Below are positions 22,628 through 29,157 of a stretch of DNA of 36,346 nucleotides, piece by piece. The stretch is taken from IMG/VR virus record IMGVR_UViG_2529292882_000022, positions 1 through 36,346 of that record; one strand, 5' to 3'. The notes under the pieces are model-generated. The model ran no database searches, had not been told where the DNA came from, and worked only from the letters and a program-made list of their open reading frames with translations. The number at the start of each line of letters is the position of its first letter. The first letter of the stretch is position 1. Both the position numbers and the translations under genes were made by a program. The DNA comes from a virus. Lineage: Duplodnaviria > Heunggongvirae > Uroviricota > Caudoviricetes.

Positions 22628-23441
22628 GTTTGCCCTTCTCCGTTAAAAATTCGTCGGGTAGTTTCTGAGGGGCGTAGATCGGCAGTGCATCGCAACTGCA
22701 ATAAACCTCCTCCCCGGCAGCAGTGATTTCGTCATAAAAACCATATACGGGCTTAATCAGCCCCTGCTCCAGCGCCCACGAATCGCGGAGGAGATAAATT
22801 TTCTCGTCGCGCTCTTTGTGGTCCTGTCGGTATTTGTAGCCCGGACGCCGCCAGTTAGAATGCCAGCGCAGAGCAATCGCTCCACTCTGAACAGCCAGCA
22901 GATACTTAACGTTGCTTGCCAGCTTATGCCCCTGGTCAATTGCCACCCGACGACTGATAAAATCCATATCCTTCAGGGATTTCTGAAACCCGGCCTTCAC
23001 TTCCCGGCGATCAATTTCGCTCACCCCGTCAGGCGGAATGGACGTAACCCAACCCTGAAAACGCTGTATGGTTTTCTCGATGGCCTGTTCTCGGTTGAGT
23101 TTTATCAGGTTGGCACTGGCGAAAATTCGCCTGTCGAGTTCCTTGCGAAACTCAGGTTTCAGTTTTTCAACAGTGATTTTTTTAGGGCCGTCAGGAGGCT
23201 GATCCCGTAATGCCCCGCCGTCGATGACAAGACGGCTGTAGATAGCGGTGAGGTGTTTTCTGGCTACGGTATCATCAGGGGTTTCTCGTTGAGCGGCTAC
23301 ACGGAGTTTCCGGCACCATTCGAGCAATGATTTTTCGCTATCCCACCCGTGATTTACGTAGTAGTTAACGGCATCCGTCAGAACCTCATACAGCGTCCTG
23401 ATCCGTTTCTTCTTCCTCACCGCCCGGCTGGAAATTGCCAT
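22608..23441 (-). CDS. head morphogenesis / minor head protein, putative
   Basis: Follows the portal gene; track start 23579 overlaps the portal by ~190 nt, whereas ATG at 23441 has an AGGAG upstream and gives MAISSRAV... Confidence 0.4.
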   Translation of the reverse strand: MAISSRAVRKKKRIRTLYEVLTDAVNYYVNHGWDSEKSLLEWCRKLRVAAQRETPDDTVARKHLTAIYSRLVIDGGALRDQPPDGPKKITVEKLKPEFRKELDRRIFASANLIKLNREQAIEKTIQRFQGWVTSIPPDGVSEIDRREVKAGFQKSLKDMDFISRRVAIDQGHKLASNVKYLLAVQSGAIALRWHSNWRRPGYKYRQDHKERDEKIYLLRDSWALEQGLIKPVYGFYDEITAAGEEVYCSCDALPIYAPQKLPDEFLTEKGKREFNRA

Positions 23442-24825
23442 CAGGCGTCTCCTGCTTCGGTGGTTCATAATTCGCCAGCGCGTCCACATCAATGATGAGT
23501 GGAGCTTCGCCATAGGTTTGCGTGGCATTAACAAGGCTTGCCAGCCATTCAGTGACGGCGGCACGGTTTTCAGGATCAACCTGTGGCGACACGGCAGAGA
23601 AAAGTGCTATCGCCTGTTGAATCACTTTACTATCGCTTTCCCGGCGTTTGTCCGGCGACTCCTCCACCAGCTCCTGCCATGTCGCGGTAAATTCACGTCG
23701 CCACTGGTAAAACGTGGTTTTATAGTCATCAGTTATGATGTCCGGGTAATCATTTTTCAGCGACTGATAAAATTCCTCGTTCCAGGCGATGTACTGCACC
23801 AGGCGTTCGAAATAATCCATCACGGGTTCAATCTGCTGGCGTACACCATCGATATACTGGCTGATGGCTTTCGAATCTTCGGTCCCCTCACCGAAACCAT
23901 TCGAAAAGGCTTCCTCTTTGATGAGGATCGCCGGAACGTCACTCCCTGACGCAATATCGGAAATAATATTGTCGCGTGCAGCGTTTAGCGCACCATCGAT
24001 GTTTTGTAGATTTAGCGAGGTAACGTCCTCATCCTTCCCGATACTAAGCACACCTTTATTTTTTGCCTCTTTGACGTTTTCCCTTTTTCGTCCCGTGGCG
24101 GCAGCCATGATCCCGTCAAGTTTCGAACCGTACTGCACAACTTTAGCTACCAGTACGCCCGCCTTCTGGCTGACGAGATCATTCGCCTCCATCGTGTTGA
24201 TATAGGATTTCAGGGAATAAAGAACGCGCTGAAACACACTTCGTCCGGTGAATCCGAACGATGAACTCTGAAACTCCAGATAAATCGGTGTGCCGTTGAA
24301 GATTTTCAGTGTGCGTGACGGATGCCAGTCTTTCCCACCAATCTTCAGTTTTTTATTGGCTTCCTGGAAAAACGGGCTGTTGGGGTTCTGGTCAGTCACC
24401 ATCGAACCGGAAGCGTTCAACGGGTCCCACGCGTTGATATACACGTCATCTTCTGTCAGTCCGAACGTCGGAAGCGGTTCACGACATGGAACGCTGTCGG
24501 TGCCCACGCCGATCGCTGCAGCACCGTAGCAACGAGACAGAAAAAACAGATTTTTAATCTTCTCGTTGACCTTCATGCGTTCCCATACCTCCTGAAAACG
24601 CCTCACAACCCTCTCGTCAGGGTCTGTCTCCACGTTATACTGGCGCGGCTTACACATCGCCATCAGTATGGGTTTTTCGACAAGTTTTCCGCCCAGAGGA
24701 TGGAATTGCCACAGCTGCTTACACAATTCATAGCCAATGTCGGTTCCCGGCTGAATTTCTTCAGCCTCAAGAATATGCATCAGTGCTGAACCGAGGCCGC
24801 CAGTAATCTCGATCTCTGCCATCAA
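23386..24825 (-). CDS. portal protein, putative
   Basis: 479-aa ORF immediately downstream of the large terminase gene; size and position typical of portals. Confidence 0.6.
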   Translation of the reverse strand: MMAEIEITGGLGSALMHILEAEEIQPGTDIGYELCKQLWQFHPLGGKLVEKPILMAMCKPRQYNVETDPDERVVRRFQEVWERMKVNEKIKNLFFLSRCYGAAAIGVGTDSVPCREPLPTFGLTEDDVYINAWDPLNASGSMVTDQNPNSPFFQEANKKLKIGGKDWHPSRTLKIFNGTPIYLEFQSSSFGFTGRSVFQRVLYSLKSYINTMEANDLVSQKAGVLVAKVVQYGSKLDGIMAAATGRKRENVKEAKNKGVLSIGKDEDVTSLNLQNIDGALNAARDNIISDIASGSDVPAILIKEEAFSNGFGEGTEDSKAISQYIDGVRQQIEPVMDYFERLVQYIAWNEEFYQSLKNDYPDIITDDYKTTFYQWRREFTATWQELVEESPDKRRESDSKVIQQAIALFSAVSPQVDPENRAAVTEWLASLVNATQTYGEAPLIIDVDALANYEPPKQETPDGNFQPGGEEEETDQDAV

Positions 24826-24840
24826 AAATATCCTGATTTT

Positions 24841-26169
24841 TTACAACGCCGCGTAATTACCGTGCGCGATAATCAATCCATAGGTATAACAATCGAAAAG
24901 GTCATCAGCACGTTTATGCGCGTCTTTGTCTGCCAGGTGGAACCCGGCGATTTGTTTAATGAGGTGGTTTGCGGTGGTACGTTTGAATGAAACGGTCTTG
25001 TCGTAAGCCTCCCGGACGATTTTGCACATCCCCTGATAGTGGTAGCTGGATGCCATCACCGCCCGTTCGTCTTTACCTTTGCTGGTCAGTGCCGATTTAA
25101 TCGGCGTCATATCCCAGCCTTCGGTTTCCGCCTTCTGGTTGAGGATTGCCCCCATCGCGGCGTCTTCCATAAAAATTCCCTGGCTGCCCAGACGCGGACG
25201 GCATAATTTCGCGAGGCGCTCGAGGTTGTCATAAACGCCGGGGATATATTCAGGAAGCAATGACGCTTTAATTTGCGTCACATCCCAGTCAATAATCGTC
25301 AGTTTTGGCTCGTCCGAATACGTTGACTCATAAGCGAAATACACCACGCCAGTACCATCATTTTCGGTCCCGCCTTTCAGCGCCGTATCCATCACTGCGA
25401 AAATCATGTCGCAGTACGGCGGCATCTCAATTGGTTGACCGTCCACCAGCAGCTTATCGACATCGAGTAACGCGTCTTTGGACCAGTCTACGAACTCTGC
25501 AAGATATTCCTGCTGCCAGACGCGCGGATCGGATTTCTTCTCCGTTTCCTCCAGTTCTTCTTTCGGAATATACGGATTCGATGAAGTTGGCGCATGGTGC
25601 ATAACAAATCCCAGGGATTCATCGTGGCATATCGCGTAGAAAAAATTGCTCTCGTCGATACCGTTTGGTGTGGAAAATACCCACGCACAGCCACGGTAAT
25701 CGACAAGCGTCGGGCGTATCGCTCGGGGCCAGATTTCCTCGAGCATTTCCGGCGATTTAGTGAATGCGGCCTCATCAATCAGCACAGCGTGATATTTACG
25801 CCCACGCCCGGCCAGTTTGTTATTGTCCGTTACCCAAAAGTCGATGCGCCCCCCATTGCGGAGAATGATGCGCTTTTCATTTTTTGACTGACTGAGGATC
25901 AGCGGTTGCAGAACGGCGCTAATTTCATCCCAGATTTCCTGGTACTGGCGGTATTGCGCGGTAAAAATCCCCACCCTACCCGCGATAAGTTGCCCGGTGG
26001 TAGGAACGGCAAATTTCCGCGTAGCGAAACTGGTAGCGATGTTCACCAGCATCACCGTTTTACCCCAGCGACGACCACAGCATACCGCGTGGAAGCGTTC
26101 TTCTATTGCCGCCGTCCATGCAGCTATTTGCCCCTCATGAGGTTTTGGGAGATAGATTTCAATCGACAT
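24841..26169 (-). CDS. terminase large subunit
   Basis: N-terminal Walker A-like CGRRWGKT, acidic ...VLIDEAAF... Walker B-like segment, 442 aa, followed by portal. Confidence 0.7.
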   Translation of the reverse strand: MSIEIYLPKPHEGQIAAWTAAIEERFHAVCCGRRWGKTVMLVNIATSFATRKFAVPTTGQLIAGRVGIFTAQYRQYQEIWDEISAVLQPLILSQSKNEKRIILRNGGRIDFWVTDNNKLAGRGRKYHAVLIDEAAFTKSPEMLEEIWPRAIRPTLVDYRGCAWVFSTPNGIDESNFFYAICHDESLGFVMHHAPTSSNPYIPKEELEETEKKSDPRVWQQEYLAEFVDWSKDALLDVDKLLVDGQPIEMPPYCDMIFAVMDTALKGGTENDGTGVVYFAYESTYSDEPKLTIIDWDVTQIKASLLPEYIPGVYDNLERLAKLCRPRLGSQGIFMEDAAMGAILNQKAETEGWDMTPIKSALTSKGKDERAVMASSYHYQGMCKIVREAYDKTVSFKRTTANHLIKQIAGFHLADKDAHKRADDLFDCYTYGLIIAHGNYAAL

Positions 26170-27250
26170 TATCCACTCCCGGCATCGGCAGAGAGTTGTG
26201 GATAATTATTTCGTTATTCTCACCACCCACGCCTTTTTTGAGGTTTTCAATCTCAGTGCGCAGCTTTTCGTTGCGAAGCCTCAGTCCTTCAAGCTCCAGA
26301 TCATTGCGACTGTCAGTTGCACCACCAGCAGAACTTCCTTTCGTCGCCATTATCAGCTTGATAAGTTCGCGCCGGGCGGCAGCCTTATCCTCCAGCAGGA
26401 TCTCAACACCAAATTTCCCGAGCTTTGCCCCTGCATATAATTGCCGCGCCTCCCCATCAAGCAGAGTGGTATCAGCCATATAAAGCTGCCCCGTTCCCTC
26501 ACCGCAGCACTTCGGGCAGTCCGGATTGGGTATGGCGTTATCAACAAAGCCGAGGCCTCCATATTCCGGCTCGGGTTTGCCATCTCTGGAGGCCTGTGCC
26601 GCTGCCTTATCGAATTCTGCAATATCACGCCACTGGTAGAGATGATTCTCGCCCCAGCAATAACGGCAGTTAACACGGCGAAATTGTGCCAACTGATTGG
26701 GGTCGGCCTGGACAATAGCCATCAACTGGCTCACCAGTAAATCCAGATCTGCGGTATAGCGTTTCTGGTACTGATTGCGGAAGTAGCTAATGGCACGATA
26801 AACCCTGGCATTTCTAAGCATACGGCTGGCGTTGCTGTTAGCTGTCGCACCTTGCCCCTCATAACCAGCCAGTCGGTATGCCTCTGTCGGCTTTTTCCCC
26901 TGAGCAACCAGCATCGCAAACTTAGCCTGCTGGTCAGAAATGCCGAATTCATCGGGACAGAATGAAATTTCCTCTGCGTCGCCCTCATTCAGGCACGCAT
27001 CGGATACTGACTTTTTTATCTGAGATTTTCCGTTCCGCTTTTGCGCAGTCTGCGCAGATTTTTTCTGCGCACTTTTTTGCGCAGTTTTGCGCATTTCTGT
27101 CTGCGCATTTTTCGGAGGTTTTTTGATGTAACGACGGGCTGTTGCGTAATTCAGTCCCCTTGCTTCACACCATGCCACCGGAGATATACCGGAGCGGGTG
27201 TATTCAGCAATATACTCCTGCTGCAACGCCCCCCAGTCCGGTCTGCTCAT
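26159..27250 (-). CDS. terminase small subunit-like DNA-binding protein (with Cys-rich and coiled-coil C-terminal region)
   Basis: N-terminal HTH-like segment; central ...KFAMLVAQGKKPTEAYRLAGYEGQGATANSNASRMLRNARV... resembles the small-terminase signature as remembered; 10-nt overlap with the large terminase gene. Confidence 0.5.
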   Translation of the reverse strand: MSRPDWGALQQEYIAEYTRSGISPVAWCEARGLNYATARRYIKKPPKNAQTEMRKTAQKSAQKKSAQTAQKRNGKSQIKKSVSDACLNEGDAEEISFCPDEFGISDQQAKFAMLVAQGKKPTEAYRLAGYEGQGATANSNASRMLRNARVYRAISYFRNQYQKRYTADLDLLVSQLMAIVQADPNQLAQFRRVNCRYCWGENHLYQWRDIAEFDKAAAQASRDGKPEPEYGGLGFVDNAIPNPDCPKCCGEGTGQLYMADTTLLDGEARQLYAGAKLGKFGVEILLEDKAAARRELIKLIMATKGSSAGGATDSRNDLELEGLRLRNEKLRTEIENLKKGVGGENNEIIIHNSLPMPGVDNVD

Positions 27251-27253
27251 CAG

Positions 27254-27505
27254 TTAGTCCTGATTTTTATCCACCCTGAGTAGTTCGCGCAGGGCAAAGG
27301 CATCCCCTTTTCTGGCAAGCTTAAACAATGCCGCCCGTAGCTCGGCTTCACCTTTCGCTCTGCCCTTACGGATGGACGCATAAAAATTTGTCATTGCTTC
27401 CCGATTTTCTTTCAGTCGGTTCAGATCAACATCCAGAACGTCAGCTATTTGTTGTGCAGTCATCCGGCACGCTGCCAGAGACTCGACTTTCGAATACGGA
27501 ATCAT
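27254..27505 (-). CDS. small hypothetical protein (83 aa)
   Basis: ORF between the GT-A-like gene and the small terminase gene; overlaps the upstream gene end. Confidence 0.3.
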   Translation of the reverse strand: MIPYSKVESLAACRMTAQQIADVLDVDLNRLKENREAMTNFYASIRKGRAKGEAELRAALFKLARKGDAFALRELLRVDKNQD

Positions 27506-28373
27506 TTGTCACCCCCATTGATATGCAGGGTGTCTTCTTCCTGTATTTTTCGTGAAGGATTTTTACTGCAGCGTTGTTCCAGGTGACCTGATGGTGAATG
27601 CGTTTATGGCTGGCACCCATCAGTGAGATTTTTACGCACGACGGCGCATACATGACGGAGTAAAAACTTTTAACGTAGGTTCCGGAATCCAGATACAGCT
27701 CGGTCATTCCGCCGCTGTTTTTCTGCGTCTGTTTCTGCCCTAACTGGACAGCACCGATCGTCATAAACAATTCACCACGGCGACCGAGATTCGTGTACGT
27801 ATTCACATCCTCGTTAATGCGCCCCATGAATGAGAACGGTCGCTCGACCGAACAGATAAAGCTGTTCATTGCCTTGCGTTTCACCCATGAAGCATGGCCG
27901 CCATTGTCACCAAGAAAATCCCCGCCCTGCGACATAGCGATGGAAAGAGCAGGTATTGATTCGTAATACGCCAGCATTTCAGAAAGGATCGCATCCAGTT
28001 TCCTTATCGGAAAATAGGCCTGGTCATAGTTGCGATCCACCCGAAACTGAAACTCGTGATAATCATCATCGAGCTGAATGAAGTATTTACACCCGACCAG
28101 TTTTGCCAGGTCGAAACAGGCATTACGGGCGTAAAAAATTGAGCGGCGGTCACAGAAATTATCGGCTTCGTCAAAACGACTGGCGATATCGGCTTTGGAA
28201 AACACCAGCACCTGTTCACCAAATTCAGCCATGTACTGATGCCGTGTCTTATCTTCATCATCAACAACGATAAAAATTTTCCCGGTATAGCCAGCACGAC
28301 GCAACGTCCGGTAAGTCAGAACTTTGTCCGGTCGCCCGTGAGTCAGAATAAAGGCGCAAAAATCATCACGCAT
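27441..28373 (-). CDS. GT-A-like (DxD-containing) protein of unknown substrate
   Basis: Motifs FILTHGRP, IVVDDEDK and IQLDDDY are reminiscent of a GT-A nucleotide-sugar transferase fold; ATG at 28373 overlaps the ParB-like stop inside a GGAGGAGGAGGA run (translational coupling). Confidence 0.35.
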   Translation of the reverse strand: MRDDFCAFILTHGRPDKVLTYRTLRRAGYTGKIFIVVDDEDKTRHQYMAEFGEQVLVFSKADIASRFDEADNFCDRRSIFYARNACFDLAKLVGCKYFIQLDDDYHEFQFRVDRNYDQAYFPIRKLDAILSEMLAYYESIPALSIAMSQGGDFLGDNGGHASWVKRKAMNSFICSVERPFSFMGRINEDVNTYTNLGRRGELFMTIGAVQLGQKQTQKNSGGMTELYLDSGTYVKSFYSVMYAPSCVKISLMGASHKRIHHQVTWNNAAVKILHEKYRKKTPCISMGVTNDSVFESRVSGSVPDDCTTNS

Positions 28374-29157
28374 ATTCCTCCTCCTCACCACCATGCATGA
28401 TCTCCACCATGCGCTGCGTCATCCGGACAAATCCATTTTCAATAGCCTGCTGATAATCAATGATCACCAGTGCCGACTCCTCGAAAAAACACTGAATTTC
28501 AGCGGGGGCGTGAGCGTAATAGTCCGCAATTCTGCTGAAATTAAACACTGTGTGGCGTTCTGCCGCACACAGGAGGAATTTTTCGATATCAGGATCAAGG
28601 GACGCCGAACGTATCCGGCTGACCAGCTCCTGAGTTTTCGTATCGTCGTACAGTTCGCCGATATCCGGTTTATCGCCTGACGGCTCATAAACAGGTGTAT
28701 CAATTTTCGTCGTATACGGCTCCTCCTCATTTTCTGTACCGGGCAAAACATCCGTCAACAGTTCATCAATTTCTGTCGGGCTGAAGCCTGTCAGGGAGAC
28801 ATCAAAATCAGCATTGATTAGGTCCGACAGCTCCATCCGTAACAGATCTTCATCCCAGCCAGCATTCATCGGCAGGCGATTATCTGCCAGGCGGTACGCC
28901 TTTTTCTGATCATCCATCAAACCAGACAGAACGATGACCGGAATGGAATCCATTTTGAGCACTTCAGCCGCCATAACGCGACCGTGACCAGCAATAATTT
29001 CGCCCTTTTCATCAATCAGCACCGGATTAGTCCAGCCGAATTGCTTAATGCTTTCTACCAGTTGTGCCACCTGCTCAGTGCTGTGTGTCCTGGCGTTGTG
29101 TGCATACGGAGACAGTTCTTGTAAAGGGCGATAGACGATCTTCAATTTCTCGCTCAT
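28366..29157 (-). CDS. ParB-like nuclease domain protein
   Basis: N-terminal ...KIVYRPLQELSPYAHNARTH...PVLID..GEIIAGHGRVMAA... matches the ParB/sulfiredoxin-like N-terminal domain pattern; acidic C-terminus. Confidence 0.6.
   Translation of the reverse strand: MSEKLKIVYRPLQELSPYAHNARTHSTEQVAQLVESIKQFGWTNPVLIDEKGEIIAGHGRVMAAEVLKMDSIPVIVLSGLMDDQKKAYRLADNRLPMNAGWDEDLLRMELSDLINADFDVSLTGFSPTEIDELLTDVLPGTENEEEPYTTKIDTPVYEPSGDKPDIGELYDDTKTQELVSRIRSASLDPDIEKFLLCAAERHTVFNFSRIADYYAHAPAEIQCFFEESALVIIDYQQAIENGFVRMTQRMVEIMHGGEEEEYA

Follow-up and report, generated by a model that had tools for sequence, protein, structure and literature searches.

Genes at the Locus

The window, i.e., the entire 36,346-nucleotide stretch of DNA that was analyzed, contains two overlapping genes just ahead of the genes for DNA packaging. 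The first encodes a 263-aa ParB-like protein of the ynaK family (28366..29157, minus strand), which was identified from its ORF and from Pfam, PHROG and RefSeq, and the second encodes a 310-aa GT-A glycosyltransferase of the TAGT family (27441..28373, minus strand). The minus-strand orientation of the two genes was not mentioned in the initial annotation. The 3' end of the TAGT gene is overlapped for 23 nt by a small gene of 69 aa (27254..27463, minus strand; phrog_309, 2.5e-22; a CDS in RefSeq). The genes for the small terminase subunit, terS (26159..27250, minus strand), and the large terminase subunit, terL (24841..26169, minus strand), follow directly; these two were recognized by Pfam Terminase_2/Terminase_6N and phrog_51/phrog_2. 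A terminator-like hairpin lies on the same strand at 29695..29670, about 0.5 kb upstream of the pair, and therefore the pair heads the packaging genes, as was originally proposed. Searches of the window for tRNAs and Rfam families gave no match.

The interval had been described as a two-gene unit, which overlooks the 69-aa gene as a third gene. Judged from its sequence, however, this gene resembles part of a small terminase subunit and probably belongs to the packaging genes and not to the module. The locus L100 has an 83-aa counterpart of it.

The coupling junction between the ParB-like and TAGT genes is at 28366..28386 (minus strand). The ParB-like ORF ends in ...GGEEEEYA*, and its stop codon and the TAGT start ATG (28371..28373, minus strand, beginning at 28373) share an 8-nt overlap (ATGCGTGA, 28366..28373), so the overlapping ATG had been read correctly. 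The run in front of this ATG was also rightly taken as a ribosome binding site, since it has overlapping GGAGG cores 3 and 6 nt away from the ATG, but its letters are GAGGAGGAGGAA (28375..28386, minus strand) and not GGAGGAGGAGGA, which is one base off. The TAGT frame is open as far as an upstream ATG at 28394, which would give an alternative protein of 317 aa. The 310-aa start is preferred because 30 TAGT homologues begin with MRDDFC... in the alignment and because RefSeq also has the 310-aa start.

The TAGT Glycosyltransferase

The 310-aa protein contains the three GT-A-like motifs that had been noted in it (ILTHGRP, VVDDEDK and QLDDDY), and both the GT-A fold and the active-site motif, R..DDD..ED(Y/F), are confirmed. 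It had been placed in no recognized family, but this is not the case: a profile search, which had been suggested as a check, assigns residues 15-229 to a known phage glycosyltransferase family, Pfam PF20691, with 123.6 bits (E 1.3e-35), the cut-off being 27.5. PF20691 is the TET-associated glycosyltransferase (TAGT) family of phage GT-A DNA glycosyltransferases, which was reportedly defined by Iyer et al. in 2013. The protein also matches phrog_842 (E 2.5e-103), and the newer RefSeq name for the product is 'GREB1-related protein'. Neither NCBIfam nor PADLOC has a match for TAGT or for the 69-aa gene, and a PDB sequence search with TAGT had no match. Among viral structure models, TAGT resembles TAGT-domain proteins (E 5e-26, TM 0.77-0.84) as well as the T-even-type beta-glucosyl-HMC-alpha-glucosyltransferase (E 2e-6).

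The DDD of the motif corresponds to D102-D104 (28062..28070, minus strand). In an alignment with 31 close and 10 distant TAGT homologues, R14, D102-D104, D189 and H260-H261 are invariant, and position 188 is E except in two distant homologues, which have D. A conserved C-terminal region, GTYxKSFYS ... RIHH, falls outside of the Pfam model, and a 22-aa C-terminal extension occurs in the E. coli lineage only. The same R..DDD..ED motif is found in phage GT-A enzymes for which glycosylation of 5hmC in DNA has been demonstrated (bioRxiv 10.1101/2023.12.21.572611), and PF20691 also includes the T2/T6 enzyme by which glucosyl-5hmC receives a second glucose (PMC13216743, PMC13390438).

The ParB-like Partner

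The description of the first protein as ParB/sulfiredoxin-like, with an AGHGR motif, is borne out. The protein matches Pfam ParB_N (1.8e-6) and phrog_620 (4.9e-89), its RefSeq name is 'ParB/Srx family N-terminal domain-containing protein', and AGHGR, a box II variant, is at residues 56-60 (28978..28992, minus strand). The ParB_N profile, the fold and the GxxR-type box II place it in the ParB/Srx (ParB-CTPase fold) superfamily. Residues 1-142 (28732..29157, minus strand) consist of a ParB/Srx NTP-binding-type head and the helices that follow it. The nearest relatives of this head are phage ParB-DNA-methyltransferase fusions (PADLOC 1.1e-38, phrog_498 1.7e-50), and in tblastn its identity to the heads of DNA adenine methyltransferases of phages is 44-54%. 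The partner is very acidic, with a pI of 4.4 and a net charge of -27 (its homologues have pIs of 4.0-4.8), and it has no match to an HTH family in Pfam.

In induced E. coli phages, the GenBank name of the protein is 'chromosome (plasmid) partitioning protein', which would make it a partition ParB of the plasmid or chromosome type. The chance that this name describes its function is close to nil. The protein scores 35.6 bits with TIGR00180, far below the cut-off of 58.45, and it lacks an HTH domain; there is no ParA among the neighboring genes, and the gene itself sits in the late operon of an integrated prophage. A canonical ParABS ParB was rejected on the domain architecture, the TIGR00180 score and the lack of ParA.

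Residues 146-263 (28369..28722, minus strand) comprise a linker motif and an all-helical C-terminal domain. No methyltransferase domain was matched in these residues, which are the TAGT-partner domain. The linker motif, YTxKIxxPxYEPxG, is conserved, the domain itself has the motifs FLxxAAERHTVFxF..IADYY..SALVIID..AIENGF, and conservation of the C-terminal region extends from E. coli to phages of Haloarcula and Porphyromonas. Profile searches with the domain (about 110 aa) found no Pfam or PDB family; a match to PF23887 recurs below the Pfam threshold and is a lead only. No fold was assigned to the domain because the confidence of its AF2 model is low (pLDDT 35-80). At 50% identity, its family comprises 1174 clusters. 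The domain is always at the C-terminus in the best 150 of them, and about three quarters of these 150 have the length of ParB-fused proteins.

The Pair Is a Conserved Cassette

The initial annotation had proposed looking for the pair in other phage genomes, and it is indeed present far beyond this lineage. Ninety-one loci, which form 37 clusters at 90% identity, were taken into the comparison. In 90 of the 91, the last 4-17 nt of the ParB-like gene lie within the TAGT gene, and 87 of those 90 have a nearly full partner profile that includes the C-terminal domain. The overlap is 4, 8, 11, 14 or 17 nt in all 35 non-redundant pairs, and since the arrangement is the same in each of them, it is not due to chance. 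The hosts of phages with the pair include Proteobacteria, Firmicutes, Actinobacteria, Bacteroidota and Haloarchaea. For example, Lactobacillus phages phi jlb1 and c5 have the same overlapping order, ParB-like gene and then TAGT, together with terminase genes, and in c5 the pair comes right after cos. Porphyromonas phages likewise have an overlapping ParB-TAGT pair followed by terminase genes, and the same overlapping order is found on metagenomic contigs. The haloarchaeal virus HHTV-2 has the pair too, with terL following after about 2.9 kb. Among the 32 non-redundant loci whose upstream flanks were compared, no further gene family accompanies the pair repeatedly. The co-occurrence of the ParB-like and TAGT genes is near-obligate, and the two form a conserved cassette.

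The position of the cassette would suggest a second function that had been considered for it, i.e., an accessory role in packaging. The terminase would be helped by the ParB-like protein, which would bind the pac or cos site or cut it, like the HNH proteins with HK97-type terminases, and TAGT would be a passenger. In about 31 of the 37 clusters, terL is 0.3-3 kb downstream, with the pair immediately before terS/terL; in Nocardia phage NTR1, the pair adjoins terL with no terS between them; and the historical name of the Pfam domain is 'ParB-like nuclease'. However, the terminases next to the pair are of both the cos and pac types, and the downstream terL proteins belong to at least five Pfam families, e.g., Terminase_6N, Terminase_3, GpA and TerL_ATPase, some of which already have an HNH partner. 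The pair is strictly coupled within itself and to no terminase, and variants without the ParB head are found in replication modules (see below). We consider this function quite improbable, and the reading of the ParB-like protein as a nuclease or terminase helper was rejected because the protein is acidic, lacks a DNA-binding domain and is coupled to TAGT.

The slot itself is not restricted to this cassette. In Psychrobacter phage pOW20-A, a ParB-DNA-methyltransferase fusion fills the same place before terS and terL.

The C-Terminal Domain without the ParB Head

The profile search also found many proteins that consist of the C-terminal domain on its own. Vibrio phage pv27, for example, encodes a 139-aa protein that has the linker motif and the C-terminal domain, lacks the head, and is directly 5' of TAGT; this standalone domain is 44% identical to the E. 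coli domain. On phage contigs of 96-145 kb, the standalone domain adjoins one or two TAGT genes in the middle of the replication module, where the neighbors are DnaB, primase, DNA polymerase, clamp, RecA and clamp loader. An enterobacterial prophage has the standalone domain in place of the ParB-fused form before terS. By sequence comparison, then, the C-terminal domain is the TAGT-specific part of the partner. The occurrence of the standalone domain with TAGT in replication modules indicates that the system is tied to DNA and not to a single packaging protein.

The Missing Precursor Pathway

The characterized members of PF20691 all require a 5-hydroxymethyl-pyrimidine, or a sugar that is already attached to it. 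No TET/JBP or thymidylate-synthase-like hydroxymethylase gene was found in the window or in the full E. coli prophage, and there is also none in the complete genomes of phages c5 (32 kb) and phi jlb1 (38 kb). A scan of the unassigned proteins longer than about 140 aa in these two phages and in the E. coli prophage brought no hidden dioxygenase or hydroxymethylase to light. The Pfam-labelled metagenomic loci have no TET/JBP or hydroxymethylase gene within 8-10 kb on either side of the pair. The 32 upstream flanks contain no recurrent dioxygenase or hydroxymethylase family (84 ORF families; best 25 of 53); the families were ranked by number of members and then by E-value, and so a weak singleton TET match may escape. 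An association with a dioxygenase or hydroxymethylase that makes 5hmC or 5hmU was thus not found for the TAGT here.

Because no source of hydroxymethyl-pyrimidine was found, TAGT may have a new acceptor on DNA, may depend on an unrecognized hydroxylase or may act on a substrate other than DNA. A similar situation has been met on a larger scale. About 65% of the phage contigs in a survey of glycosyltransferases had neither 5mYOX nor ThyS and were left unexplained, and the authors regarded such contigs as less likely to act on DNA (bioRxiv 10.1101/2023.12.21.572611).

Regarding a substrate other than DNA, TAGT might be a protein glycosyltransferase like GREB1, whose related GT domain O-GlcNAcylates ER-alpha (PMC7968844). 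Its target for O-glycosylation would be the partner itself, for example at the PxYEPxG linker, or else a protein of the virion or the host, with the partner acting as substrate or adaptor. The lack of a hydroxymethyl-pyrimidine source fits a protein target, as does the presence of a conserved linear motif within the low-confidence linker of the partner, and one locus (L010) has other glycosyltransferase genes near its capsid genes. However, several homologues of the partner have Lys or Arg in place of the Ser/Thr that follows YEP. Furthermore, since the downstream terL proteins are of at least five families, there is no conserved protein target in the packaging machinery, and both the placement of the C-terminal-domain and TAGT pairs within replication modules and the sharing of the ParB head with DNA methyltransferases argue against this explanation, which we regard as unlikely.

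A second possibility of this kind, which we rate lower and consider rather remote, is that the target of TAGT is a nucleotide or another small molecule, whose glycosylation might change a nucleotide pool or inactivate an immune signal of the host, with the ParB/Srx head binding the nucleotide. As noted above, PADLOC is blank for TAGT and for the 69-aa gene. The standalone-domain variants, which have no nucleotide-binding head, still keep TAGT, and the neighboring genes are always those for replication or packaging and not early or anti-defence genes.

Proposed Function

We lean toward the view that the module is a late-expressed, two-subunit DNA glycosyltransferase that works like the ParB-dependent 5mYOX. 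Thus, where the initial annotation had proposed a candidate DNA-modification or packaging-accessory module, the first part would hold in the form of DNA glycosylation and the second would probably not. Catalysis would be the task of the 310-aa TAGT, with an NDP-sugar as donor and DDD as the metal site, and the 263-aa ParB-like protein would be its obligate partner. We predict that TAGT is docked by the C-terminal domain of the partner and is loaded onto double-stranded DNA, or activated there, by the ParB/Srx head, in the manner of ParB176 with 5mYOX176. The overlapping stop and start codons would ensure that both subunits are made together. The sugar would be put on replicated phage DNA just before or during packaging, where it probably would blunt host nucleases in the next cell.

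What is constant among the loci is the GT-A enzyme, the partner domain, the co-translation and a gene setting in which new DNA is made or packaged, while the terminases vary, and it is this combination that points to DNA as the common substrate. The same constant features point to a heteromeric enzyme in which the C-terminal domain holds TAGT. We infer that the ParB-like protein and TAGT form a complex, that DNA is the substrate, that an NTP is used and that the role is protective. Against DNA as the substrate are the failure to find a hydroxymethyl-pyrimidine source, the strongly acidic nature of the partner and its lack of an HTH domain, together with the fact that GREB1, a relative of TAGT, glycosylates a protein. 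We found no experiment or functional study on the ParB-TAGT module in the literature searched.

A more specific proposal is that this clade glycosylates DNA that has no hydroxymethyl-pyrimidine. The acceptor would be a canonical base (e.g., an exocyclic amine) or a DNA hydroxyl (e.g., at a genome end), and the C-terminal domain would serve as a specificity or activation factor. We offer this as a tentative suggestion that has perhaps one chance among several of being right. If true, an acceptor other than a hydroxymethyl group would be a new kind of DNA modification, present in temperate phages of both bacteria and archaea.

Comparison with Known Systems

That the TAGT enzyme belongs to a known family is, as its profile matches indicate, not new. 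It shares its family, GT-A fold, R..DDD..ED motif and phage origin with the 5mYOX-associated glycosyltransferases (Burke 2021, Pyle 2023/2024) and with the T2/T6 enzyme; the trypanosome base-J glucosyltransferase and GREB1 are distant relatives. However, unlike the 5mYOX-associated enzymes, the module here has no TET/JBP, C5-methyltransferase or hydroxymethylase partner, and unlike the known PF20691 glycosyltransferases, its TAGT has a near-obligate, translationally coupled partner made of a ParB head and the C-terminal domain.

A parallel in architecture is 5mYOX176/ParB176 (O'Toole et al. 2026), where, as is proposed for the module here, the gene for a ParB-fold protein adjoins that for an enzyme that modifies DNA after replication. 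ParB176 combines an NTP-binding head with a C-terminal domain and lacks a DNA-binding domain, it is required by 5mYOX176 on dsDNA, and glycosyltransferase and terminase genes are frequent neighbors of the 5mYOX/ParB176 loci (PMC13229309). The likeness rests on architecture and adjacency, 5mYOX176 being a dioxygenase and TAGT a glycosyltransferase. The phage ParB-DNA methyltransferase fusions (phrog_498; PADLOC MTase_II type) have a homologous head and occupy the same slot before terS/terL. They carry a fused SAM methyltransferase, however, whereas here the enzyme is a separate GT-A protein that would be recruited via a dedicated domain. In the DpdA/DpdB system for 7-deazaguanine DNA modification, a ParB-like NTPase also assists an enzyme that modifies DNA bases, as is proposed here, but the enzyme class and chemistry differ from those of the TAGT module.

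Steering of DNA-modifying enzymes by ParB domains at packaging is an idea that has already been published. In the literature searched, we found no description of the ParB-plus-domain/TAGT pair as a unit of its own, although Iyer et al. 2013 may show the linkage, nor of the partner domain as a separate family, nor of a ParB-TAGT pair that lacks a precursor pathway. Phage DNA glycosylation is otherwise known only downstream of 5-hydroxymethyl- or 5-hydroxy-pyrimidines. The module represents a large and coherent subset of the orphan phage glycosyltransferases, with a dedicated partner domain and a fixed setting in replication or packaging genes, and it is a concrete candidate for an unrecognized DNA modification or else for a protein modification. 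Glycosyltransferases would also join dioxygenases and methyltransferases among the enzymes to which a ParB helper is ascribed, and the module has a bearing on how temperate phages evade restriction and on the type IV enzymes that target sugar-modified DNA.

Occurrence in E. coli

Among 5426 complete E. coli genomes, 1566 (about 29%) carry DNA of the module, and 867 (16%) have at least 80% of it covered. In E. coli, it is found in lambdoid prophages of the Rac-like type, flanked by the lysis genes and by terS, and ynaK of strain K-12 is the same gene as that of the ParB-like partner. Because the module resides in inducible E. coli prophages, its function is open to standard genetics and nucleoside mass spectrometry.

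The copy in the window and that of E. coli SC418 are identical (100%). Upstream of the module, the window differs: from 30223 onward there is a Mu-like prophage, which interrupts the GH108 endolysin gene of the lambdoid prophage and cuts the packaging operon and the pair off from the lysis genes and the late promoter. Because the operon is separated from this promoter, the pair may be silent in this particular strain.

The partner domain, TAGT arrangements and methyltransferase genes

At its C-terminus, the ParB-like protein carries a domain (window 28369..28722, minus strand) that forms an independent family of 1174 clusters at 50% identity, for which there is neither a Pfam model nor a PDB match. 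Five diverged members each gave the same sub-threshold match (E 0.004-0.25) to PF23887, which is mycobacteriophage L5 gene 47-like, and these matches fall on the FLxxAAERHTxF region of the domain. Besides the window copy, the family is represented at the comparison locus L012 (6459..6878) and by the proteins P0338, P0244 and P0279.

The domain is also encoded as a separate gene. For example, in large phage contigs of 96-145 kb, a standalone partner-domain gene adjoins two paralogues of the TAGT glycosyltransferase (L096 10001..12211 and L098 9105..11387), and the surrounding replication module encodes DnaB, primase, PolA, clamp, RecA and clamp loader. Such an arrangement suggests sequential glycosylation steps. 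An enterobacterial prophage (L100) likewise has a standalone partner domain and TAGT; a C5 cytosine DNA methyltransferase of 658 aa (3989..5965) is encoded 4 kb upstream, but no dioxygenase gene was found up to 10 kb away.

One viral contig (L089) combines TAGT and a class-I SAM methyltransferase domain in a single protein of 572 aa (7001..8719), with a ParB-like gene that is not adjacent to the fusion but 3 kb upstream of it. In Psychrobacter phage pOW20-A (L101), the slot occupied by the gene pair in the window is filled by a ParB-DNA methyltransferase fusion (4492..5706), the head of which is 53% identical to the ParB head in the window. In this phage the fusion follows the Q-like antiterminator gene and directly precedes a small terS-like gene, after which come terL and the portal gene.

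The E. coli TAGT has a C-terminal extension of 22 aa (window 27441..27506, minus strand) that is absent in homologues of other genera. The coding sequence of the extension runs 23 nt into the following gene, so the extra residues may be a side effect of that overlap.

The packaging genes

The palindromic hexamer TGCGCA is present six times in 66 bp inside terS (window 27042..27107, minus strand) and 15 times in the remaining 36 kb. This cluster is a candidate pac site that the small terminase may recognize. The same repeats encode an SAQK-rich stretch of TerS.

Directly after terL, where a portal gene would be expected, is a gene encoding 479 aa (window 23386..24825, minus strand). In the identical prophage of E. 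coli strain SC418, RefSeq labels it 'anti-CBASS protein Acb1 family protein'.

Two nested prophages

A Mu-like transposable prophage begins at the 30222/30223 junction and occupies window 30223..36346 (first bases TGTATTGATTCACTTGAAGTACG). It encodes a c repressor (30562..31080, minus strand), Ner (31269..31496), transposase A (31493..33499) and transposase B (33538..34476). Its insertion site lies in the lambdoid prophage, inside the GH108 endolysin gene, of which a remnant is left at 30086..30222, and so the two prophages are nested. The insertion probably makes the lambdoid prophage lysis-defective, and the Mu-like prophage separates the lambdoid packaging operon from its late promoter.
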